Source: a virus (taxonomy: Duplodnaviria; Heunggongvirae; Uroviricota; Caudoviricetes). From it: DNA of 9,037 nucleotides. Within the stretch, counting starts at the first letter, position 1, and each line of letters starts with the position of its first letter. Of the stretch, positions 1 through 9,037 are shown piece after piece. A program made the position numbers and the translations under genes. The notes under the pieces are model-generated. The model was not told the DNA's origin and did not search any database. It saw nothing but the letters and a program-made list of their open reading frames with translations. Location: positions 1 to 9,037 of IMG/VR virus record IMGVR_UViG_2778261463_000001; one strand, 5' to 3'.

Positions 1-154
1 TCGAAACGTACTCTCAACAGTTCGCTTAGGCATGGAAGTTTTGCGGCATTCTGGCTACACAATAACAAGGGAAGACTTACTCGTGGCTGCAACCCTACTA
101 GCTCAAAATTTATTCACACATGGTTACGCTTTGGGGAAATTATGAGGGGATCTC

Positions 155-394
155 TCAGCACTCAGCTCGCCCTTCTTCCCGTCTTTTGTCAATATATTCC
201 GCAAGATCCTGAATGTTGATGCAGCGTTTTGCTTTTTGTGATGTACCGATGCGATATGTAGGTACAGGCAACTTACAAGCGTTTGCTTTTGCTTCTGCTG
301 TGGCTGGACTCATACCAAAGTATTTTTGACTAACTGCTGAGAGTTCAATGTTTAGGGTATTGAATTCAGCCATCAGTAAAAACAAGGTGTTCAT
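155..394 (-). CDS. Excisionase-like small DNA-binding protein (Xis/AlpA-like); start uncertain (alternatives 421, 406, 373)
   Basis: Six-frame ORF 155..421. ATG at 394 has GGAG 6 nt upstream. Small basic protein (motifs KLPVPTYRIG, DLAEYIDKRR) as last gene of the leftward operon, the usual xis position. Family assignment from memory only. Confidence 0.5.
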   Translation of the reverse strand: MNTLFLLMAEFNTLNIELSAVSQKYFGMSPATAEAKANACKLPVPTYRIGTSQKAKRCINIQDLAEYIDKRREEGRAEC

Positions 395-430
395 AATTTT
401 CTCCATCAAAACCGGCTGCACCCGGGAAAA

Positions 431-1006
431 TCATAATTCTGTGCTGGTGGCAGGAATTAATTTCTGCCAGATAGCGGAAACATATTTTGCCTGATGACGA
501 GCATCAGCCAGGGCGTTGTGCCGTTCGCCATCGAAAGGCATGTCCATTTTGGGGTCGAATCCGATGGAACGCCCAAGCGTAACGATCGTGCGTACATCGT
601 GGTCATTCCAGTATGCCCACGGGCAGATTTGTCCTGCTCGCTCATAAGCTCCACGTAAAATTACGTTGTCGAAGGTGGCCCCGTTACCCCAGACTTTTAA
701 ATATTTCGTATTGGCTGCGTGCCGGTTAATGAAATGATTTAGTTCTGAGAGAGCATCGCTGATCGACAAAGTATCATCAATACAGATTGCAGCTCGTGCT
801 TCAGGGCTTTGTTTCAACCACCACAGGATGGTATCGCCGTCAGGTGTAGCTCCTTGCCCCATAGCACTTTCCAGGCTAACAACCGTATAGAATTCTTGTC
901 CGATGTCTCCGGTTTCTGGAGTGAAGAACACCGCGCCAATGGAAACGATCGGTGCATCCTTATTTTTCCCCATCGTCTCAAGGTCGATCATTAAGTTGTT
1001 CATCAC
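431..1006 (-). CDS. DnaQ-like (DEDD) 3'-5' exonuclease, prophage exodeoxyribonuclease-VIII-like
   Basis: 191-aa ORF with N-terminal MIDLETMG (Exo I D-x-E motif) and C-terminal H-x4-D (HNALADA). Start overlaps the upstream stop in ATGA (1003-1006). Confidence 0.7.
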   Translation of the reverse strand: MMNNLMIDLETMGKNKDAPIVSIGAVFFTPETGDIGQEFYTVVSLESAMGQGATPDGDTILWWLKQSPEARAAICIDDTLSISDALSELNHFINRHAANTKYLKVWGNGATFDNVILRGAYERAGQICPWAYWNDHDVRTIVTLGRSIGFDPKMDMPFDGERHNALADARHQAKYVSAIWQKLIPATSTEL

Positions 1007-1569
1007 TTCACCTCCTGCGGCGGTTCCGGTAGCGGCATCCAGTGAGTTGCTTGCTCAATACCATTACCCGGCTTAATCGTTGCATCTCCGCGCCGAAAGG
1101 TGCTTCCGGTATAGCGTGCGGAGCATATTAGCGGTTCAACCAGAGAGCTATCGAAATTCACCGAAATAAGCACGTTCTGGCCCTTTTCAGGCATTTGATC
1201 ACTACAGCTTATCCAACTATCCGGAGTTCCCGGAGAGTTGCCATTTACATCGAAGTTAGGCTCTGCGTCCTGAACTAGGAGGATGTAACCATTCTTGGCT
1301 GTATCAAGTTCTAACGCCTCGGTGACGGTGCCGAAATAGCGATTACCTAAATCAGCATCACAAGTGCTTACATCAATGGAAACTTCCATGCCTTCGATTA
1401 ATTCTGGCAAGTTGTAAGTTTGGCTTACAGGCTCGACTTCCAGTGAGGCTAACGCAATCCGTGCCAGTTCTTCCGCTTCTTCTGCTGGCAGTACAACGTT
1501 GCTACCAGGTCCGTATGTTTCGCGCCACTGCTTGATTGTCAGCAGTCGCTCTTTGGTAATAGTGGTCAT
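1003..1569 (-). CDS. DUF551-family prophage protein
   Basis: 188-aa ORF ending in THWMPLPEPP, the typical DUF551 C-terminal signature. AGGA 7 nt upstream of the ATG. ATGA overlap with the upstream gene at 1566-1569. Confidence 0.7.
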   Translation of the reverse strand: MTTITKERLLTIKQWRETYGPGSNVVLPAEEAEELARIALASLEVEPVSQTYNLPELIEGMEVSIDVSTCDADLGNRYFGTVTEALELDTAKNGYILLVQDAEPNFDVNGNSPGTPDSWISCSDQMPEKGQNVLISVNFDSSLVEPLICSARYTGSTFRRGDATIKPGNGIEQATHWMPLPEPPQEVK

Positions 1570-1775
1570 TTGTTAATCCTCAAAACTTTATGCCCGGGCG
1601 CAAAAGCACGCGTTTTGTCTTTGCTTATTCGCCAGCCATCCTTGCGCGCCTCTTTTGCACAGCCAGCCCATGACGTACCTATATACTCACCGAAGTCTGG
1701 CGACTTATATTTGCCATCTGTACACTGGAGGCAATCACAATAGAGATGCATGGTGTAACTTGCAGCGATAGCCAT
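1566..1775 (-). CDS. Small Cys-rich (putative zinc-binding) phage protein, 69 aa
   Basis: Internal ATG at 1775 of ORF 1566..1937, preceded by AGGAGA. The longer form would overlap the Ea22-like gene out of frame. Contains C-x-C-x2-C ... C cluster (HLYCDCLQC...GC). Confidence 0.55.
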   Translation of the reverse strand: MAIAASYTMHLYCDCLQCTDGKYKSPDFGEYIGTSWAGCAKEARKDGWRISKDKTRAFAPGHKVLRINK

Positions 1776-1776
1776 A

Positions 1777-2328
1777 TCACTCTCCTTTGATGCGAATGCC
1801 AGCGGCGCGCTCAGCTTCATTTTGTTCCCAAAACCACTTGTGAAGCGCCATAAGCTTTTCGTCAATCGGTGCATATTTGCGATTAAAGTAGGCCTGAGCA
1901 TCTTTCTCAGATTCGTCCGGCAATTCGCCTGGGCCAAACAGTGTGTTATAAATCCATGCCAGTCCGCTTTTAGCGTCGCCAGTCGATTGCCATTCGATAA
2001 TGGCAGCCTGCATGACCAGAATGTTTTTCCCGATTAATAGGTCCAGTTCTTTGTACCGGTTGCGGATGTATGCATTCTCGCTTTGTAATTCAGCGTTTCG
2101 CTTCTCTGCTGCTTCCAGCTCATCCAGCAGCGCCAAGACGGTGGCAGGATTGGCGGCGGCTATGAATCGTTTATTGGCGCGATTATCTGGTCCTGAGCAT
2201 GATGCTATGTAGTAATTGGCGTTCAGTCCGGCATCGGCAATTACTCCATGGTAGTCATCAGCACACCATTCGCCTGGTGTTGCATTTTCTGCCGCCAGTC
2301 GCAGAGCCTGATAGTTAATCTCGCTCAC
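1777..2328 (-). CDS. Ead/Ea22-like family protein
   Basis: 183-aa ORF with GTG start at 2328 preceded by AGGAGG (6-nt spacer). GTGA overlap with the upstream stop. Coiled-coil-like acidic protein typical of lambdoid ea22-like early genes (from memory). Confidence 0.6.
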   Translation of the reverse strand: MSEINYQALRLAAENATPGEWCADDYHGVIADAGLNANYYIASCSGPDNRANKRFIAAANPATVLALLDELEAAEKRNAELQSENAYIRNRYKELDLLIGKNILVMQAAIIEWQSTGDAKSGLAWIYNTLFGPGELPDESEKDAQAYFNRKYAPIDEKLMALHKWFWEQNEAERAAGIRIKGE

Positions 2329-2564
2329 TGGTTGCCTCCTTTACGGATCTGCGCTGCGATGCGCGAAAAAAAAGACTCCCGCGTATGACTGTTAAGAGCT
2401 GGCGAGAACGCTGCGTTAAGAACGGCAGCATCACAGCCGTCATCGATATAGAGCGCAATTTTTTTCTCCAGGCGCGCTTTGGCTTCCTGCAACTGCATAC
2501 CCCGGCACGCACGCGGGATATACTCAGCAATTTGAGCGATAGATTTTTCGTTCTGTTTAAACAT
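2325..2564 (-). CDS. Hypothetical small phage protein (79 aa)
   Basis: ORF with GAGGTG 4 nt upstream of the ATG at 2564. Packed in the operon with an 8-nt overlap to the upstream gene. No recognisable domain. Confidence 0.5.
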   Translation of the reverse strand: MFKQNEKSIAQIAEYIPRACRGMQLQEAKARLEKKIALYIDDGCDAAVLNAAFSPALNSHTRESFFSRIAAQIRKGGNQ

Positions 2565-2760
2565 GCTTCACCTCGATAGGCTTGATGCTGTCGATCAGCA
2601 GTCGGCGGCGCGTATTTTCTGCAAAGTGGCGGCGTCCGGTTTCTTTGTGGTAAAACTCGTTTTTTCCGACGACCCACATCCGCTTTGTCTGGTGCAGTTT
2701 TTTTACCTGCGGACCGTCTCGGGTGATAACAATTCCTGTATGAGTTTTTATCACGCTCAT
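2557..2760 (-). CDS. Hypothetical small basic phage protein (67 aa)
   Basis: ORF with GGAG 8 nt upstream of the ATG at 2760. ATGA overlap with the stop of the upstream gene (2757-2760). Confidence 0.5.
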   Translation of the reverse strand: MSVIKTHTGIVITRDGPQVKKLHQTKRMWVVGKNEFYHKETGRRHFAENTRRRLLIDSIKPIEVKHV

Positions 2761-3119
2761 TTCTTATTCTCCGGTGCTTTCGGCATTACTGCCCAGTGAG
2801 TGATATTGACGTTTTCAAGGTCCCCGACCTGAAATGTCCACTGCCATTCTCCGGTTTCTTTTTGTCCCCAGGTGTACCAGAGAGAACGCCAGCCAATTAG
2901 CCAGCCTTCTCCGTTAGCATCAAATAACAGAACACTTTCATTTGCTGGTGGCAGTTCAGCTGACACTGGTATTATTTTGTTTTCCAGTGCCGTACATTTA
3001 GCTTCAAGCGCATCGAATTTACGTACCAGGTACTCAGCATTTGTTTCGTTCACTTTCAGATCTCGCGGTATACATTTCCCGCGAAGAAACCCTTCCATTT
3101 CGAAAACATTCATGCGCAT
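2757..3119 (-). CDS. yfdS: YfdS-like prophage protein (120 aa) with DUF551-like C-terminus
   Basis: 120-aa ORF directly downstream of the yfdR-like gene. Length matches E. coli K-12 YfdS as I recall it. C-terminus ITHWAVMPKAPE resembles the DUF551 signature. Confidence 0.55.
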   Translation of the reverse strand: MRMNVFEMEGFLRGKCIPRDLKVNETNAEYLVRKFDALEAKCTALENKIIPVSAELPPANESVLLFDANGEGWLIGWRSLWYTWGQKETGEWQWTFQVGDLENVNITHWAVMPKAPENKK

Positions 3120-3646
3120 TTGCGTAACTCCGATAAATCGTTAAAACGTTCCATAAACATCCCGTAGGCATGACCCGGTGCCAGTGGAATCACGTTGAAC
3201 ATCTCTGTTGCCGGGATGCCTTCCAGTACAGGCCAGAAAGAGCCATCATCAAGCCCGAGATCGCGGCGTTCGGTTGCCAGCATGATGAGATCGGCATATT
3301 TCACGGGTGTACTCATAACTGGGGGTAACCCGTATTTCTCACGGATTACGGCGTCTATTTTTTCTTCCATCCGTTTATAGTCAGGAAGAAGGCGTTTCAG
3401 TGGTGCGGGAATGTCCTGGCAATACGCTTCTGTTGCATCATGCATTAACGCTTCAAAAGCAAATTCCTGCGGCACCAGCTGGCTGCAAAGAACCGCATGT
3501 TGGGCGACGCTGTAGAAGTGCGAAAGATGACCGGCAAAGCGACAGATATTTGAAAGGGAAACCGCGATATCGTTAATATCGATGTCGTCTTTATTTATCT
3601 TGTCATAATAAAAATGCTTCCCGGAAAAAGTTTTAATAAATGACAT
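3110..3646 (-). CDS. yfdR: HD-domain phosphohydrolase, YfdR-like (178 aa)
   Basis: ORF 3110..3673; ATG at 3646 preceded by GGAGAA gives 178 aa. Metal-binding motifs H-x..-HD-x..-D visible (HAVLCSQ...LMHDATEAYCQDIP). Length and context match K-12 YfdR. Confidence 0.7.
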   Translation of the reverse strand: MSFIKTFSGKHFYYDKINKDDIDINDIAVSLSNICRFAGHLSHFYSVAQHAVLCSQLVPQEFAFEALMHDATEAYCQDIPAPLKRLLPDYKRMEEKIDAVIREKYGLPPVMSTPVKYADLIMLATERRDLGLDDGSFWPVLEGIPATEMFNVIPLAPGHAYGMFMERFNDLSELRKCA

Positions 3647-3739
3647 TTTGTTCTCCACGTATATGCACTGCACCGCGCTGAATTCTGGTAAAAGGAAGCC
3701 CTCACCATCCGGTGATTATTGAGTTAATTACGTTTCCAT

Positions 3740-3761
3740 AAATGCCCCCGCAGGGGCATTT
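3740..3761 (-). promoter_or_regulatory. Intergenic GC-rich hairpin between the yfdQ-like and yfdR-like genes (9-bp perfect stem, 4-nt loop)
   Basis: AAATGCCCC-cgca-GGGGCATTT. Only 3 T/U follow the stem on either strand, so at most a weak terminator; could be an RNA stability or processing element. Confidence 0.35.
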
Positions 3762-3773
3762 GCAGTAATGAAA

Positions 3774-4598
3774 TCAGGCGGTGAAAGTACCAATAAAGGT
3801 TTCTACTTTGCTGTCTTTGAATTTCTCAACAAGCAGATCACGAAATTCGTTAGCCATTTCTTCCTGCACCGCTTCCAGCTGAATAATGCGCAGAACCAGT
3901 ACAGGACGATCGCCAGTGATAATGCTGAGGCGTAATTTAAACGGACGTTCTTTCAGACCTTCAAACGGAACGCATTTAAATTCAAATGCCACTGGCATAA
4001 TGTCTTTGGTCTTCGCTTCGACAGACTCCATCAGGGAGCGTTTGCCGCTGAAGTCATTATCTTCAAAATCAGCGGTCTGGTTTGCTTCAATCGTGATTTT
4101 ACGGACTGCCGCAGCCGCTTTTGTTGCTTGAATGGCGTCACCATTAGCATCAAAGCCCACAAGGTAGTCGGCCCAGTCTTCGATCCATTCTGCCAGTGAC
4201 TTCTGGGAGTTACGCTCGCCGTTAACAGACAACAGAGCAGAGAACGGTGCTGTCTTTTTCAGTTTGAGAGTGGCAGTGTTATCTGCGTGACCTGGCTCAT
4301 CAATAGTACCCAGGTTAAGCACACTGACGGCACGCATATTATCGGCATCGATAAAGCAGCGGGTGCCTTCATCTGCAAGATCTTTAGAATAACGGGTAAA
4401 ATCATCGATGCTGGCAGTGGAAAGTGCACCACGGAAACGGAAGCGATTTAAATTAAATTTTTCCAGATCATGAATGCGGAAATTCTCAGGCAATGCCACA
4501 GCATCGGCACCAATCTTACTGATAATTTCATTAACACCCTGAGCAGAAATAAGGGCATGGATTTGATTAATTGCGGTTGCGTCTAAGTTCTGAGACAT
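3774..4598 (-). CDS. yfdQ: YfdQ-like protein (DUF2303 family), 274 aa
   Basis: 274-aa ORF between the yfdP-like and yfdR-like genes. Length and gene order match the K-12 CPS-53 yfdP-yfdQ-yfdR-yfdS block (from memory). Confidence 0.65.
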
Positions 4599-4663
4599 AA
4601 TAAGTCCTCACTATATAAAGATATTCAGTGATGAGATAAATAATCAGTTTATTACGAACGATA

Positions 4664-5026
4664 TTAACGACCTGCTGCGCGGAGTTTTCCGTCAGGTTCA
4701 CCGGCAAGAGTCAGTAATTGTCCCTGGTCTTCCTGCAGAATAGTCAGGCGACCACCGCGATTGACATACATCGGCGTTTCGGTGGTGTCTTCTTCGGAAA
4801 TTTTCCCGCGGTTAGTCGGGCGAATATAAGAGAGTTTGTGTTTGATTTTCACACGGTTCTCATCAAATGGTTCGATTTCCAGGTTGAGTGAGACCTTACC
4901 TTTGGTTTTCGTGTTCATCACACCGGAAGCGACTTCACTGAGAACAGCGCCGATTTTGGTTTCAAATACGCCGCCGTCCAGCTCCCCGATAAATGCCTGC
5001 ACATCAGTACTGCGTTCGCTAGCCAT
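4664..5026 (-). CDS. yfdP: YfdP-like protein (120 aa), first gene of the pL operon
   Basis: ATG at 5026 preceded by GAGGAG (7-nt spacer) gives 120 aa (MASERSTDVQ...). The six-frame extension to a TTG at 5212 runs through a 15-bp perfect inverted repeat and lacks an RBS, so is judged non-coding. Confidence 0.6.
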   Translation of the reverse strand: MASERSTDVQAFIGELDGGVFETKIGAVLSEVASGVMNTKTKGKVSLNLEIEPFDENRVKIKHKLSYIRPTNRGKISEEDTTETPMYVNRGGRLTILQEDQGQLLTLAGEPDGKLRAAGR

Positions 5027-5074
5027 TTTGCTGCTCCTCATCATATCGACCCTGTAAGGTCGGTTGGTTTCTCC

Positions 5075-5163
5075 ACAAAACAGAGAAGAACACCTGCGGT
5101 GGCAGCCGCCCGGATGGATTGGGTTATGAGCCCGTCGTCCGGTGATGCTCTTCTCTGTTTTGT
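5075..5163 (-). repeat. 15-bp perfect inverted repeat (ACAAAACAGAGAAGA / TCTTCTCTGTTTTGT) enclosing 59 bp, in the 5' leader of the yfdP-like gene
   Basis: Arms at 5075-5089 and 5149-5163 are exact reverse complements. Expected number of such repeats by chance in 9 kb is about 0.001. Function (RNA stem, processing site or protein site) is inferred, not shown. Confidence 0.6.
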
Positions 5164-5209
5164 AAAAAGAGCGGTACCAGCCGGAAGCAAGTGTACAAAC
5201 TGGTACCGC
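5164..5209 (-). terminator. Terminator-like hairpin on the pL transcript: 10-bp perfect stem, 19-nt loop, then UCUUUUU
   Basis: GCGGTACCAG (5171-5180) and CTGGTACCGC (5200-5209) are exact reverse complements. On the minus strand the stem is followed immediately by a T-rich tract (plus 5164-5170). The loop is long for a classical intrinsic terminator. Confidence 0.35.
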
Positions 5210-5367
5210 CAAAGCAGTGGCTGTTGTGGTGACCGGTGCTGATCTCCGGCTTGCGGTTATTTCAGACTCTCACGGGCGTTTAATTGCCCCGCCGAACAGC
5301 TCTTTTCCGCAATAGCTGCAATGTCTTTCGCGCATCAGCCTGCGCATTCACCACAACTCTAAAAACA

Positions 5368-5420
5368 AATGTAGGATATCCAACATGTGAGTGTCAAGAG
5401 TTTATGTTGGTTATCCTACA
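5368..5420 (-). promoter_or_regulatory. OL/pL: leftward promoter (-35 TTGACA at 5397-5392, -10 TACATT at 5373-5368, 18-bp spacer) with two 16-bp dyad operators
   Basis: Operators TGTAGGATATCCAACA (5370-5385) and TGTTGGTTATCCTACA (5405-5420). The first is identical to OR1 in reverse complement. Promoter hexamers read on the minus strand. Confidence 0.6.
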
Positions 5421-5437
5421 TAAAAAGATAGGCTCAT

Positions 5438-5463
5438 AAAAAAACCGGGGATACCCCGGTTTT
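5438..5463 (-). terminator. Intrinsic terminator downstream of cI (bidirectional architecture)
   Basis: A7-CCGGGG-ATA-CCCCGG-T4 starting 20 nt past the cI stop. On the minus strand the 6-bp GC stem is followed by 7 U. Confidence 0.7.
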
Positions 5464-5483
5464 GCGATAGTGAGGAAGATGTG

Positions 5484-6137
5484 TCAAAAATCCATTATTA
5501 CTTGTTTGACAAGACCAACTATTCTGCAGTTCTCACCGCATTCAATAGTTTTATAGTTAGGATTTAGTGGGACGAGATACCTGTTCGGCCAGTCCTCAAC
5601 AAATTTTTTGAGTGTCGCTTCTTGCCCACCATTGATATGGGCAACAACGATTTTTCCGTTAATACACTCTGTATCAATAATATCTGGCTCTACGATAACG
5701 ATAGAACCTTCTGGTATCGATGGTGAGCCGAGGGGATTGGTCATTGAATCACCACGGACCCGTAGTGCAAATGCCATTTCTGATACAAGGGCGGTAGTAT
5801 AAACCCACTCTTCAGCATCTTCTTTCCTGACACCAGGCTCCGTCATTGTCCATGAACCCGCCTGAACCCACGAGATGAGGGGGACTTTTTTAACTGCGAA
5901 TATTTCAGGTTTTAGATTTATCTTTGGTTCAGGCGAGCCTTTTCCGCTAACAAGCCACAGAGGATCGCATTTAAGTGCGTTGGCTAGGGCTTGAAGGTTG
6001 GCTCCATTTGGTTGGTAGTCGTCCTTTTCCCATCCAGTAACCGTGACACGGTTCACACCAGTCAAATCAGCCAGTGCTTGTTGTGTCAGGTTCAGTTCTT
6101 TTCGCCTTTGGCGAATACGATCACTCATGTTCATCAT
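5484..6137 (-). CDS. cI: CI-type prophage repressor: N-terminal HTH (XRE family) plus C-terminal S24 LexA-like autopeptidase
   Basis: 217-aa ORF. HTH region LTQQALADLTGVNRVTVTGWE. Probable Ala-Gly cleavage site (VQAGSW). Catalytic Ser in RGDSM and downstream Lys (TLKKF). Divergent from cro across an operator region. Confidence 0.85.
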   Translation of the reverse strand: MMNMSDRIRQRRKELNLTQQALADLTGVNRVTVTGWEKDDYQPNGANLQALANALKCDPLWLVSGKGSPEPKINLKPEIFAVKKVPLISWVQAGSWTMTEPGVRKEDAEEWVYTTALVSEMAFALRVRGDSMTNPLGSPSIPEGSIVIVEPDIIDTECINGKIVVAHINGGQEATLKKFVEDWPNRYLVPLNPNYKTIECGENCRIVGLVKQVIMDF

Positions 6138-6201
6138 GTAGGCAATCCTACCACATGCCCATGTAGGATTCTTGACATTGGCATGTTGGATATCCTACAT
6201 T
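6137..6201. promoter_or_regulatory. OR/pR/pRM: three operators plus rightward promoter pR (-35 TTGACA 6172-6177, -10 TACATT 6196-6201, 18-bp spacer)
   Basis: OR1 TGTTGGATATCCTACA (6184-6199) lies between -35 and -10. OR2-like TGTAGGATTCTTGACA (6162-6177) overlaps the -35. OR3-like TGTAGGCAATCCTACC (6137-6152) abuts the cI start codon. Centre-to-centre spacing is 22-25 bp. Confidence 0.65.
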
Positions 6202-6232
6202 TCTGCTTAACGTAATTTAACGGGAGACAGAA

Positions 6233-6430
6233 ATGCGGAAATCCGACGTGATTAATTATTTCGGCGGAGTTTGTAAAACCGCCGAAGCCCTAGGTATTAA
6301 GCATCCGTCTGTTTCAGAGTGGCCTGAGATTATTCCTGAAGGCCGAGCGTACCAGTTAGAAAAAATTACTAACGGGAAACTGAAAGTTGACGTGTCTTTA
6401 TATCAAAAGACTAACAGTGCTGCGGCATAA
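6233..6430 (+). CDS. cro: Cro-like small HTH regulator (YdaS-type)
   Basis: 65-aa ORF with GGGAGA 5 nt upstream of the ATG, directly downstream of pR. HTH-like segment CKTAEALGIKHPSVSEW. Confidence 0.75.
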   Translation: MRKSDVINYFGGVCKTAEALGIKHPSVSEWPEIIPEGRAYQLEKITNGKLKVDVSLYQKTNSAAA

Positions 6431-6457
6431 AAACACCACAGAAATGAGGAATTAACC

Positions 6458-7036
6458 GTGGGTAAAGAACCTGAATGGAAAGTTGATAAACAACCAGCAT
6501 GGCTGGTGGCAGCAATACGAAGAACGATTGCTGATTTACCTCATGGCTATGAGGAAGCAGCAGAAATTCTTGGTTTGTATAAATCTGATGATATCACCCC
6601 AGCAAAAGATCAATTGCATAACAGACTGCGTAGCGGTGGGGATCAAATTTTTCCACTTGAGTGGGCCATGGTTTTACAGGATGCCAGTGGTACCAGGCAT
6701 GTAACAGATGCAATAGCCCGTCGTAGTAATGGGGTGTTTGTGCCGCTGGTGGTCATTGATGACATTGACAATGGTGACATTAATCAGCGGCTGATGGAGT
6801 CAATAGAATGGATTGGCAAGCATTCCCAGTACTTACGCAAGGCAACTGCTGATGGAGTTATTGACCTGGCTGAGCGTGAGCAAATCGAAGAGAACAGCTA
6901 CCAAGTAATGGCGAAGTGGCAGGAGCATTTAACACTGTTATTTCGTGTTTTTTGTGCGCCGGAAAAGAGTGACGCCCGCGAGTGTGCAGCTCCGGGCGTC
7001 GTGGCGTTTTGTGTCTGTGGAGAAACTAACGCATGA
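6458..7036 (+). CDS. CII-like regulator (YdaT-type), 192 aa
   Basis: GTG start at 6458 with GAGGA 8 nt upstream. Sits immediately after cro, as in the cI/YdaS/YdaT modules of Rac-like prophages. Family assignment from memory. Confidence 0.6.
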   Translation: MGKEPEWKVDKQPAWLVAAIRRTIADLPHGYEEAAEILGLYKSDDITPAKDQLHNRLRSGGDQIFPLEWAMVLQDASGTRHVTDAIARRSNGVFVPLVVIDDIDNGDINQRLMESIEWIGKHSQYLRKATADGVIDLAEREQIEENSYQVMAKWQEHLTLLFRVFCAPEKSDARECAAPGVVAFCVCGETNA

Positions 7037-8103
7037 ACAGTTTAACGGCAAATAACCGTTGGTCGCAACAGCTGGTGGTCCGCGTGGCTGAACACCTGTT
7101 GTTACGGCATGAATGCAGATTACCAAATCACCTGGCTGTAAGTAACCACAGAGAACTTTACCTGACTGTGGGGGGCGAGTTGTGCAGGAACTTAACCGCT
7201 GGTTTCGTGACGGAAGAGGGCTTTATGTTCATGTTATTCGTTGGGAACCAGAAACACAGCGCGTTATCTATCTTCGCAAAGACTACCCGCATGAGTGCTT
7301 TAGTCCTTTGTGGAAATTCAGGCGTGATTTTGTTGAGTGTGAAGGACCACCAGCACATTGATTCTGCCATTCCGGGACGTTACACTGTTCAGGCACCTTA
7401 TAAAGCGGGTGCCGGGATTGGCGTCCTGAAATTGATTACTGAGCATAACCGCGCTCATGCGGTTTTTTCGTGTCATGAGCATTGCTACGCCCAAATTATG
7501 GTGGGGCGTACAGGGCCGACTTCGGTCGGGCCGGGTTCGGTAGTCTCCGGTAACGCCAACCCTGTACGTCTCACCACCTCTGTGATTGGCGTCCCATGTG
7601 GTGAGTTTTCTAAAAAACTGACTACCGGGGCTGTCACCATGACTACTCTCCCAACCCTCTCTCAACCTGAAATTGCCATCGTTGATGGTCAGGCTGTTAC
7701 ATCTTCTTTGGCTGTTGCTGACTTCTTCTCTAAACGTCATGACGATGTTCTGAAAAAGATCCGCATTTTGGATTGTTCTCCAGAGTTTTGTGCCCGCAAT
7801 TTTGCGGAGACATCAATTTTGGTACGCCAGCCCAACGGCGGTACTCGCAAACTTCCTTGCTACCAAATCACACGCGACGGTTTTGCGTTTCTTGCTATGG
7901 GTTTCACGGGTAAACGTGCTGCCCAGTTCAAAGAGGCATATATCAATGCCTTTAACCAGATGGAGAAACAGCTTTCAAAGCCCGCTGTACCGAGCGACGT
8001 TGCACATAACGCCAGCGTTCTCTGTTCCTACATTTCATCAATTCATCAGGTCTGGCTGCAGCAGCTTTATCCCGAAAGGGAAGGTCGAGATCACTATCAG
8101 TAA
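7033..8103 (+). CDS. Rha-family phage regulatory protein (long form): ~200 N-terminal residues of unknown function fused in frame to a C-terminal pRha domain
   Basis: 356-codon open frame whose ATG overlaps the cII-like stop (ATGA at 7033-7036). Residues from about 7639 match the Rha core (KRHDDVLKKIR, ITRDGFAFLAMGFTGKRAAQFKEAYINAFNQME). Alternative starts at 7498 or 7639 would give 201 or 154 aa. Confidence 0.5.
   Translation: MNSLTANNRWSQQLVVRVAEHLLLRHECRLPNHLAVSNHRELYLTVGGELCRNLTAGFVTEEGFMFMLFVGNQKHSALSIFAKTTRMSALVLCGNSGVILLSVKDHQHIDSAIPGRYTVQAPYKAGAGIGVLKLITEHNRAHAVFSCHEHCYAQIMVGRTGPTSVGPGSVVSGNANPVRLTTSVIGVPCGEFSKKLTTGAVTMTTLPTLSQPEIAIVDGQAVTSSLAVADFFSKRHDDVLKKIRILDCSPEFCARNFAETSILVRQPNGGTRKLPCYQITRDGFAFLAMGFTGKRAAQFKEAYINAFNQMEKQLSKPAVPSDVAHNASVLCSYISSIHQVWLQQLYPEREGRDHYQ
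7447..7468 (+). terminator. Terminator-like hairpin (AACCGC-gctcat-GCGGTT followed by a T-run) inside the long ORF
   Basis: 6-bp stem with 6-nt loop; six consecutive T at 7463-7468. Weak stem, and it lies inside an open reading frame, so it may be fortuitous. Confidence 0.25.
7499..7576 (+). other. Strand-specific RNA stem-loop element: 17-bp closing stem with two G-U pairs enclosing a CCGAC-UUCG-GUCGG tetraloop hairpin
   Basis: 7499-7515 pairs with 7560-7576 (15 Watson-Crick plus 2 G-T pairs, so it folds only as plus-strand RNA). Inner hairpin 7516-7529. Tandem imperfect 15-nt repeat GGGCCGACTTCGGTC / GGGCCGGGTTCGGTA. Confidence 0.4.
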
Positions 8104-8153
8104 GTATGAGAAACCGGCGGGTGCAGCCGCCTGATTAAGAGGAGAAACGAAGT

Positions 8154-8963
8154 ATGAATAATCTGATAGTTATTGATGGTATTGAAGTTCGTCGTGATGC
8201 TTATGGGCGTTACAGCCTGAACGATCTGCACAGGGCAGCCGGGGGAGAACAAAAAAACCGCCCGAAATACTGGCTCTCCAATAAGCAAACCTGTGAATTG
8301 ATTGAACAACTTTTCACCGAGGGTGAAATTCCGCCTCTGGAACAAAATCAACCAGTTAGCGTCATTAATGGCGGAAATAACCAGGGGACGTATGTCTGCA
8401 AAGAACTGGTGTATGCCTATGCAATGTGGATCAGCCCGTCATTCCATCTGAAGGTGATCCGTACTTTCGATATGGTAACCAGCGCACCGGAAAAATTATC
8501 CGGGCAGGCTGCTGACAAGATGCAGGCTGGTGTGATTCTGCTGGACTTTATGCGCCGGGAGTTAAACCTGTCTAACTCTTCAGTGCTTGGTGCCTGTCAG
8601 AAACTCCAGGAGGCTGTTGGCTTACCGAATCTGGCACCGCGCTATGCCATTGATGCTCCTGCTGACGCGCCTGATGGCTCAAGTCGCCCTACGCTGTCGC
8701 TGAGTGCACTGCTGAAACAGTATGGTATCCGCCTTACGGCTAATCAGGCATATCACCAGATGGCGAAGCTGGGGATCGTTGAACAACGCGAACGATACAG
8801 CCGTACCACGATTAACAACATCAAAAAATTCTGGTCGCTGACAGCGAAAGGTTGCATGTTCGGCAAGAACATCACCAGTCCCGCAAATCCGCGCGAGACG
8901 CAGCCGCATTTCTTCGAATCCCGATTCCCTGAGCTGTTAAAGTTGCTCGATACCGTTCATTGA
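8154..8963 (+). CDS. KilA-N domain protein (putative antirepressor or host-interference protein), 269 aa
   Basis: AGGAG 9 nt upstream of the ATG. N-terminal KilA-N hallmarks: VIDGIEVRRDAYGRYSLNDLHRAAGGE...NRPKYWL and ELVYAYAMWISPSFHLKVIRTFD. Confidence 0.75.
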   Translation: MNNLIVIDGIEVRRDAYGRYSLNDLHRAAGGEQKNRPKYWLSNKQTCELIEQLFTEGEIPPLEQNQPVSVINGGNNQGTYVCKELVYAYAMWISPSFHLKVIRTFDMVTSAPEKLSGQAADKMQAGVILLDFMRRELNLSNSSVLGACQKLQEAVGLPNLAPRYAIDAPADAPDGSSRPTLSLSALLKQYGIRLTANQAYHQMAKLGIVEQRERYSRTTINNIKKFWSLTAKGCMFGKNITSPANPRETQPHFFESRFPELLKLLDTVH

Positions 8964-8970
8964 GGTGACC

Positions 8971-9037
8971 GTGAGAGCACTACTGACCCCTGAAATTGCC
9001 CCGCGTATGGGGATCGTATTGTTCAGGCCAGGTTCAG
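8971..9037 (+). CDS. 5' end of a further rightward gene (partial, runs off the window)
   Basis: GTG at 8971 preceded by GAGGTGA; open to the window edge (VRALLTPEIAPRMGIVLFRPGS...). Too short to assign a product. Confidence 0.3.
   Translation, partial: MRALLTPEIAPRMGIVLFRPGS

Follow-up and report, generated by a model that had tools for sequence, protein, structure and literature searches.

The leader between pL and yfdP in a lambdoid immunity region encodes the published small RNA sRNA-17, a member of a widespread phage RNA family with a tRNA-like fold

The window analysed here, a stretch of 9,037 nucleotides (nt) from a virus of the class Caudoviricetes (IMG/VR record IMGVR_UViG_2778261463_000001, positions 1 to 9,037), is the immunity region of a lambdoid prophage, and its early-left operon opens with a structured leader of about 335 nt between the promoter pL and the first protein gene, yfdP. 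Within that leader lies the gene for sRNA-17, a previously published small RNA (sRNA). The cI-type repressor open reading frame (ORF; 5484-6137, minus strand; HTH_3 and Peptidase_S24 domains) is followed by an intrinsic terminator that was read directly in the sequence (5438-5463, minus strand; AAAACCGGGG-UAU-CCCCGGUUUUUUU) and then by pL (TTGACA-N18-TACATT, 5397-5368, minus strand, with its -35 at 5397-5392 and its -10 at 5373-5368), which scored 10/12 in a promoter scan and is overlapped by two operators that are 18-base-pair (bp) palindromes, OL1 at 5369-5386 and OL2 at 5404-5421 (ATGTAGGATATCCAACAT). Because the same operator and hexamers recur at the divergent promoter pR (6172-6201, operator at 6183-6200), pL is real and repressor-controlled. 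Transcription is predicted to start at about 5360/5359, which agrees with the minus-strand start near 5361 that had been proposed from the letters of the window without database searches (hereafter the sequence-only reading). The same reading placed the first gene at 5026, and there the yfdP ATG (5026-5024, minus strand) is preceded by a Shine-Dalgarno sequence, GAGGAG (5039-5034, minus strand), and a small predicted hairpin (5062-5047, minus strand). Indeed, K-12 yfdP uses the same start codon. From yfdP the operon continues through yfdQ, yfdR, yfdS, Ead/Ea22, a DUF551 gene and a 3'-5' exonuclease gene to xis (155-421). As had also been proposed, no N-like protein was found among these yfdP-to-xis products in PHROG and Pfam searches, and the relatives SfII, SfIV and SfV are likewise reported to be without N (PMC3851460).

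In Escherichia coli K1 strain RS218, sRNA-17 was defined by 5' and 3' rapid amplification of cDNA ends (RACE) as a 193-nt RNA, confirmed by Northern blot, and located within an mEp460-type prophage directly upstream of yfdP (Front Microbiol 2020, PMC7719688). The published primer table maps exactly onto 5357-5165 of the minus strand, and the leader RNA is therefore sRNA-17 itself and not new as an entity. Specifically, the full-length primers map to 5165-5196 and 5326-5357, with ends that give exactly 193 nt, and the Northern probe maps to 5247-5296; together with five RACE primers these make eight oligonucleotides with exact matches inside 5165-5357, and the only mismatches fall in the upstream flank, beyond 5357, in which the RS218 sequence is different. 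Beside the yfdP ATG, at 5028-5048, lies the match of the identification primer, and the leader of phage mEp460 is 99.4% identical to that of the window. In RS218 the flank upstream of sRNA-17 is TAAGTGCTCTCAGC, which is of P0 type and not pL; in the window sRNA-17 begins 3-4 nt past the predicted pL start and is fused directly to pL. E. coli EC12 (NZ_CP070229), 100% identical to the window over 4900-5500, has the same junction. The sequence-only reading had taken the leader to be structured and empty of genes. It is non-coding, structured and conserved, but a published sRNA gene inside it had been overlooked.

The sRNA-17 gene (5165-5357, minus strand) consists of a conserved fold that we call module A, a linker, a terminator hairpin and most of the U-tract that follows. 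Module A (5223-5357, minus strand) has more structure and wider conservation than any other part of the leader, and the sequence-only reading had not described it. Its fold, defined by a covariance model and by compensatory changes, comprises a closing stem of nine covarying pairs (stem P1; 5357-5349 with 5231-5223), a three-nucleotide linker AAU (5348-5346), hairpin 1 (5345-5330, loop GGCUGA), a variable insert (5329-5251) and hairpin 2 (5250-5232, loop AGAUCAGCA), all on the minus strand. The core, G-AAU-GCGCA-GGCUGA-UGCGC ... GCCGG-AGAUCAGCA-CCGGC, is almost invariant. The closing stem varies in sequence, yet stays paired (GGGAUUGGAUG/CAUCCAAUC, CACAGAAGCGG/CCGCUUCUGUG and GGGGAGCGGUCUG/CAGACCGCUCCCC, for example), and its length ranges from 9 to 24 bp across the family; the insert is hypervariable, spans 9-163 nt and cannot be aligned between subtypes. 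Among 68 scaffold sequences, which had been pre-filtered for at least seven of the nine closing-stem pairs, two-sided compensatory changes were seen at 9/9 closing-stem pairs and 5/5 hairpin-1 pairs, with 96% of alignment cells paired, and neither 500 shuffles nor any slid register approached the observed values.

The loops of the two hairpins are also complementary to each other, GGCUGA and UCAGC in the window, and pair in a 5-bp kissing interaction. A third scan aimed at altered loops recovered members in which the loops differ, and five independent variants change on both sides. The pair GGUCGA/UCGAC occurs in three contexts, two of which have altered hairpin-2 stems as well, GUGCGA/UCGCA and GGUUGA/UCAAC likewise change together, and GGCGA/UCGC had been seen in an earlier scan. 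A covariance model, R2, was built from 22 members of other subtypes with the window subtype excluded, and it found a single match in the window, at 5219-5361 on the minus strand, with 70 bits and E = 2e-19; on the SfV/ST64B subtype it scored 22-24 bits. The topology of module A is tRNA-like: the closing stem stacks on hairpin 2, a 3-nt linker leads to hairpin 1, and the two loops meet in an 'elbow'. The insert occupies the place of the tRNA anticodon arm. A hammerhead ribozyme, suspected from CUGAUG, was rejected on an incomplete core and a GAAA that is not conserved.

Past module A and the linker stands an intrinsic terminator (5163-5210, minus strand), with a 13-bp stem (5210-5198 with 5182-5170; GGCGGUACCAG/CUGGUACCGC) and the U-tract UCUUUUU (5169-5163). 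The sequence-only reading had listed a terminator among its options for this stem and U-tract, and three observations agree with it. The hairpin folds at -21.2 kcal/mol (z = -4.3), and 0 of 200 shuffles are as stable; the position is kept in ST64B, LLS, phiNP and L140 (L-numbers are our designations for compared loci) with different stems (GUCGGCGUC, UGCCCAUCG, GGGCGGUAUCAG), always followed by CUUUUUAC; and the published 3' RACE end of sRNA-17 in RS218 lies at this terminator (PMC7719688). A simple terminator scanner missed it, the loop being longer than 8 nt. In RNA sequencing of wild-type RS218, sRNA-17 is expressed while yfdP stands at 0.49 normalised reads and yfdR at 0 (PMC7719688). Given this 3' end and a silent yfdP, transcription stops at the sRNA-17 terminator in vivo in RS218, and sRNA-17 therefore does not antiterminate itself.

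Downstream of the terminator, and overlapping its U-tract, lies a long hairpin (5070-5168, minus strand) with a 25-bp stem (5168-5144 with 5094-5070) and a branched tip. The 15-bp perfect inverted repeat recognised earlier (5163-5149 with 5089-5075) is present and forms the core of this larger stem. The hairpin folds at -51.2 kcal/mol (z = -7.4), and the leader as a whole is likewise far more stable than shuffled sequence (z = -5.8). Across eight homologues five pairs of the long stem show compensatory changes, and in other prophages the same hairpin precedes unrelated first genes. It could plausibly act as a processing or stability element, for example as a substrate of RNase III.

The tip of the long hairpin carries an exact copy of a tRNA arm: CGGGCUCAUAACCC (5121-5134, minus strand) is identical at 14/14 nt to the anticodon stem-loop of the E. 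coli initiator tRNA-fMet, whose sequence was confirmed as the four-copy tRNA-Met in all 5426 complete E. coli genomes compared. Such a match is expected by chance 0.01 times per window, one mismatch allowed. It is predicted to fold into a 3-bp GGG/CCC stem with a 7-nt loop, and tip variants elsewhere (GGGCCCAUAACCC, GGGGUCAUAUCCC, GGGUUCAUAUCCC) keep both the CAU and the GGG/CCC stem and are flanked by covarying stems. Two repeat strands, a' (CACAAC-GGUAAGAGCAU) and a (GUGCUCUUUCC-GUUGUGG), recur as variants in the arms of the long hairpin; in other phages they enclose each module A unit as an outer stem. Therefore, units and mimic-tipped hairpins alternate in arrays.

In a megablast comparison with the 5426 E. 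coli genomes the leader breaks at sharp boundaries, and its pieces recombine independently. Module A recurs at 98.5% identity in a phage P1 isolate, just past trnA-trnT, in P1-type plasmids and in Klebsiella phage IME207, a virulent, T1-like phage in which it sits beside two tRNA genes. Module B, the terminator and long hairpin together (about 5211-5050), follows another subtype of module A in SfV, SfII, cdtI and numerous prophages, and is about 85% identical in ST64B, phiNP and LLS. For the family itself, two exact-seed scans of viral contigs, each seeded on one end so that the opposite end could vary, yielded over 140 different members, and the module A fold is common to hundreds of phage contigs. 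The exact type-1 element is present in 845 of the 5426 E. coli genomes and is never annotated there. Of 120 matches from a genome-wide 18-mer scan only about 7 proved to be true members, most of the others being random or coding hits in high-GC genomes. The genomic members known to date belong to Gamma-, Beta- and Alphaproteobacteria, with relatives in Pseudomonas, Xanthomonas, Thauera and Pelagibacterium prophages.

In phage P1 isolate OP279344 (L125) R2 finds four units (4997-5139, 5154-5258, 5426-5535 and 5687-5819), which lie in the roughly 900 nt between trnT and tciA (4920-5820) and are separated by long hairpins tipped with a copy of a T arm (GGGUUCGAAUCCC) or of a CAU anticodon arm. 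The OP279344 record annotates only one hypothetical coding sequence (CDS) in this array, at 5161-5334. Elsewhere, most members either follow cI (37 loci) or precede lysis genes, and tRNA genes are frequent neighbours. A terminator stands within 170 nt downstream of 34/135 members, as against 8/135 control positions, whereas a strong promoter directly upstream is no more frequent in members (3/135) than in controls (4/135).

The flanks of other members hold further elements. One strand of the outer stem, AGUGCUCUUUCC, lies in the 5' flanks (for example in L029, L033, L095 and, in phage P1, at 4985-4996 of L125) and includes the rrn boxA core, UGCUCUUU; its partner is a downstream GGUAAGAGCAUU, with which it covaries in phage P1 (GUACCCUUACC/GGUAAGGGCA), and it can pair around its own unit or with a neighbouring one. 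The UGCUCUUU motif was set aside as a boxA candidate, being one strand of this outer stem. In one viral contig (L059) a type-1 unit stands in the upstream flank typical of type-2 units, an arrangement that points to an exchange of cassettes through recombination at the GUUGUGGUGAAUGCG and CACCACAAC ends that the units share. Finally, a conserved element of about 85 nt that ends in a terminator (ACCAAACCCACUACCUGGGACCCUUCGGCCAGAGAGCCGACAUUGCCUUACCCUCAUCUUCCCGGCCUGUCGCCGGGUUUUUU) lies 3' of many members (L007, L046, L055, L093, L099, L102) and could be a further prophage sRNA, perhaps one for which the Pas/STnc literature already has a name.

The published account presents sRNA-17 as an ArcA-controlled virulence sRNA of one meningitis strain, with an ArcA-regulated promoter and with yfdP and yfdR listed as regulated; it gives no Rfam match and an Mfold structure only, and reports no family, covariation or cis role (PMC7719688). 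The covariation-supported fold of the sRNA-17 body, the initiator-tRNA mimic, the family with its breadth and, in the window, the fusion of the RNA to pL are not in that account and appear to be new, and Rfam holds no such family. A whole-window scan with Rfam 15 gave no leader match at E <= 1 and no tRNA, a permissive scan of 5030-5400 gave best matches of at most 16 bits, none reaching its gathering threshold, and a full-text literature search with the motif sequences found no paper. Two other candidates for the leader RNA were rejected: the anti-sRNAs AgvB and AsxR are different RNAs of 51-60 nt, and the Pas sRNA of a preprint offers no sequence that could be linked to the window.

On balance we favour, as the probable though by no means certain arrangement, an sRNA gene driven by pL, the terminator of which doubles as an attenuator for the early-left operon. 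When repressor leaves OL, pL would be transcribed from about 5360 and polymerase would enter sRNA-17 within four nt. The body would fold closed in its tRNA-like form, with the end stem stacked on hairpin 2 and the hairpin-2 loop paired with that of hairpin 1. Most polymerases would stop at 5210-5163 and release an RNA of 193-200 nt as the main product; a read-through minority would transcribe the 25-bp hairpin with its anticodon-arm copy and then yfdPQRS through to xis, such that the terminator would set, and keep low, the expression of the operon. The ends of the RNA in the window (5' GUUGUGG, 3' U-tract) are predicted from pL and the terminator, the RACE and Northern data being those of RS218.

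Several points weigh against this arrangement. Expression of sRNA-17 in RS218 proceeds without pL, and its expression from pL in the window would follow from their juxtaposition in the sequence. With strong promoters upstream of so few members (3/135), most copies are embedded in longer transcripts, which leaves room for a cis role. A search for complementarity between module A and the window's own transcripts gave results near chance and no trans target. If the terminator is as tight as the RS218 data suggest, pL transcripts would have difficulty in reaching xis. And when the sRNA-17 body in RS218 was replaced by a cat cassette, yfdP rose to 47 normalised reads (about 95-fold) and yfdR to 8.5 (PMC7719688), a rise that may come from the cassette itself. 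The deletion arms map to 5333-5357 and 5176-5214, which left the terminator in place. In such a cassette, of pKD3 type, cat presumably points toward yfdP, and if it does the rise may most simply reflect read-through from cat with the terminator intact. The reported targets, yfdP and yfdR, are the genes downstream of the sRNA-17 terminator, and an explanation in cis is likely.

The alternative that survives best, and that we nonetheless regard as unlikely, is that sRNA-17-type RNAs and the arm mimics are tRNA-mimic decoys, released early to titrate host enzymes directed at tRNA, for example tRNA-cutting defence nucleases. The topology of module A (stacked closing stem and hairpin 2, 3-nt linker, hairpin 1, elbow) matches that of tRNA, the tip of the long hairpin is the initiator-tRNA anticodon arm, the phage P1 spacers carry GGGUUCGAAUCCC and CAU anticodon-type loops, and the elements lie beside tRNA genes in phage P1, IME207 and many contigs. 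However, the basis is one of structural resemblance; among the loci scanned neither ARAGORN nor the Rfam tRNA model makes a call overlapping module A or the anticodon-arm mimic; and the closing stem, at 9-24 bp, exceeds the 7-bp acceptor stem of tRNA. In its widest form the idea would place sRNA-17, as the first to be named, in a widespread class of phage 'scaffolded' RNAs, each a tRNA-shaped scaffold with hypervariable cargo and arm-mimic hairpins, cut from the starts of early or late operons or from tRNA clusters and acting as decoys or competitors for host tRNA enzymes, defence nucleases included. We offer this as a speculation with the odds clearly against it; if it is true, a scaffolded-RNA system is wired to pL here and would fire at induction.

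Module A might instead sense a ligand, an RNA or a protein and alter the adjacent terminator in the manner of a riboswitch. The order of parts, with a terminator after a closing stem, a conserved junction and kissing loops, does resemble an aptamer with its expression platform, and module A types 1 and 2 both precede the same terminator and hairpin. Yet no alternative pairing between the 3' strand of the closing stem and the terminator is seen in the sequence, many members lie beside tRNA genes or within arrays with no adjacent terminator, and conservation of the kind expected for ligand binding was not found in the insert. We judge such a conditional attenuator to be very unlikely.

A put-like antiterminator, which the sequence-only reading had raised by analogy with phage HK022, fares no better. 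Here the structured 5' RNA would bind polymerase and carry it through the terminator at 5210-5163 and later ones, in place of N. Position speaks for it: the closing stem starts 3-4 nt past the predicted transcription start and the terminator follows 150 nt downstream, as at putL; no N-like gene was found; members cluster past cI and ahead of the lysis genes, the two leader positions at which antitermination occurs in lambdoid phages; and the paper describing LLS speculates on a put-type mechanism for N-less yfdP phages. However, Smith-Waterman comparison of the leader with HK022 putL and putR gave scores of 14 and 15, below the shuffle means of 15.9 and 15.7, where the positive control of putL against putR gave 35 (shuffle 13.4 +/- 2.3). 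The R2 family model found no match in the HK022 put regions; Rfam could not serve as a put test, having no put model and giving no match on those regions. The RS218 RNA, moreover, ends at its own terminator with yfdP silent, in phage P1 as many as four family units stand in tandem, members neighbour tRNA genes in virulent T1-like phages, and the hypervariable insert suits a released RNA better than an element bound to polymerase. The proposal of a put-like leader is not borne out, and we hold it to be highly improbable.

Nor was a lambda-type nut site found at the leader or in the left operon, which have no conserved boxA, no boxB and no N gene. A boxA-like stretch, CGCUCUUUUUACAA (5173-5160), is the 3' arm of the terminator with its U-tract; it was rejected as boxA, for it is not conserved and reads CGUCCUUUUU, CGACCUUUUU or GCACCUUUUUU in relatives. 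Within the N-less lambdoid group, an RNA antiterminator is more plausibly sought in a second conserved RNA of about 65 nt (AGCGAACAGGCAGGACGCCCACGAAGUAGCCGCC, a hairpin, GGAUGAUUCGCU), which we call element X, than in sRNA-17. It was seen at 39 loci, and in many N-less lambdoids it starts 8-12 nt past the pL -10. In most N-less relatives the pL transcript opens with it, and the operators ahead of it are of at least six types; examples are SfV (L227, 690-760), ST64B (L224, 940-1010) and phiNP (L226, 830-900), where it sits at pL +1, and L002 (2945-3015). Its hairpin covaries (CCUGG/CCAGG, CCGGU/ACCGG, CCCGA/UCGGG and others). Element X is not in the window, where sRNA-17 takes the promoter-proximal place instead. 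Shared CGAAC and GGAUGA had suggested that element X itself is put-like, but no relation to put is detectable: a search with the covariance model of element X gave no match on HK022 put or on the window.

That the leader codes for protein, be it a YfdP extended at its N terminus from the TTG at 5212 or the 'frameshifted hypothetical protein' of the Prokaryotic Genome Annotation Pipeline (PGAP), can be all but dismissed: the yfdP frame is open back to that TTG in the window, and open upstream in ST64B as well, and RefSeq annotates such a CDS over the homologous region of two genomes, but in LLS, phiNP and L140 (three of five homologues) in-frame stops close the frame 3-15 nt ahead of the start codon, homologues differ within the long-hairpin tip by a 25-nt indel, unrelated genes follow the same module, K-12 homology begins only about 20 nt ahead of the ATG, and the stems carry compensatory changes. 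No conserved ORF was found in the leader; a small ORF in module A (MRRLMRERHCSYCGKELFGGAIKRP) was rejected, being not conserved and stopped right after hairpin 1 in other members. The PGAP frameshifted calls cover a type-2 unit, terminator and long hairpin (L002, 3861-4180; L003, 2862-3172) and are probably misannotated non-coding RNA.

Away from the leader, two further RNAs scored above their Rfam gathering scores on the plus strand, isrK at 7393-7469 (59 bits) and C4 antisense RNA at 7494-7581 (82 bits), and both fall within a mechanically called ORF (7033-8103) with Pfam Ash and Rha domains. The locus is an antirepressor control module of the P1 ImmI type within the pR operon, and the ORF call that spans it is probably spurious in part.

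These results remove a false lead, in that the leader of this N-less lambdoid prophage does not add a second system of the put type. What seemed a 'missing gene' is an sRNA already in the literature, which annotation pipelines either pass over or mistake for a frameshifted protein, and sRNA-17, hitherto a single-strain virulence sRNA, is recast as an RNA with a covariation-supported tRNA-like fold and a wide family, whose 'targets' are merely the downstream genes. They also raise the question of how N-less phages drive a 5-kilobase early-left operon past a strong terminator 150 nt after pL.

Comparison with known systems places the leader RNA as follows. The sRNA RydB (RF00118) has a hairpin, GCCGGAGAUAAGCGCCGG, that matches hairpin 2 at 16/18 positions; in contrast, the model scores reach only 13-14 bits (E = 3 and E = 0.095) on that hairpin alone, and RydB has no hairpin 1 and a different topology. 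The match is a lead and not a proven relationship. K-12 rydB is a core-genome sRNA (L127, 2714-2781), the 5' tail of which holds a CUUAUC complementary to its loop. The immunity RNAs C4 of P1/P7 and CI of P4 (Rfam clan CL00128) are likewise cut from an operon leader and have a long closing stalk with two internal hairpins; however, C4 loops pair with mRNA targets, whereas those of module A pair with each other, and the C4 and CI Rfam models found no match in the leader. With the lambda nutL-N leader the RNA shares its genomic position and a long duplex between terminator and first gene, a potential RNase III substrate, but not a conserved boxA, boxB or an N gene. Like the leader RNA, putL and putR of HK022 are structured and non-coding, stand at the beginning of the pL transcript of a lambdoid phage that lacks N, and have terminators after them; they consist of two adjacent stem-loops, whereas the RNA of the window has a closing stem, two kissing hairpins and a variable insert, and RNA of its type terminates at the next terminator in vivo in RS218. 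The junctions of tRNA and of the kissing-loop purine riboswitches resemble module A in having an end stem stacked on the last hairpin, a short linker and closure by loop-loop contact. Module A differs from them in its five Watson-Crick loop pairs, its stalk of 9-24 bp, its insert of 9-163 nt and its lack of a CCA end, and tRNA and riboswitch models did not detect it. With sRNA-17 of RS218, finally, the likeness extends to the same 193-nt RNA in an mEp460-type prophage immediately upstream of yfdP, and the difference is confined to how it begins: in RS218 a P0-type flank with an ArcA-regulated promoter, in the window a repressor-controlled pL 3-4 nt upstream.

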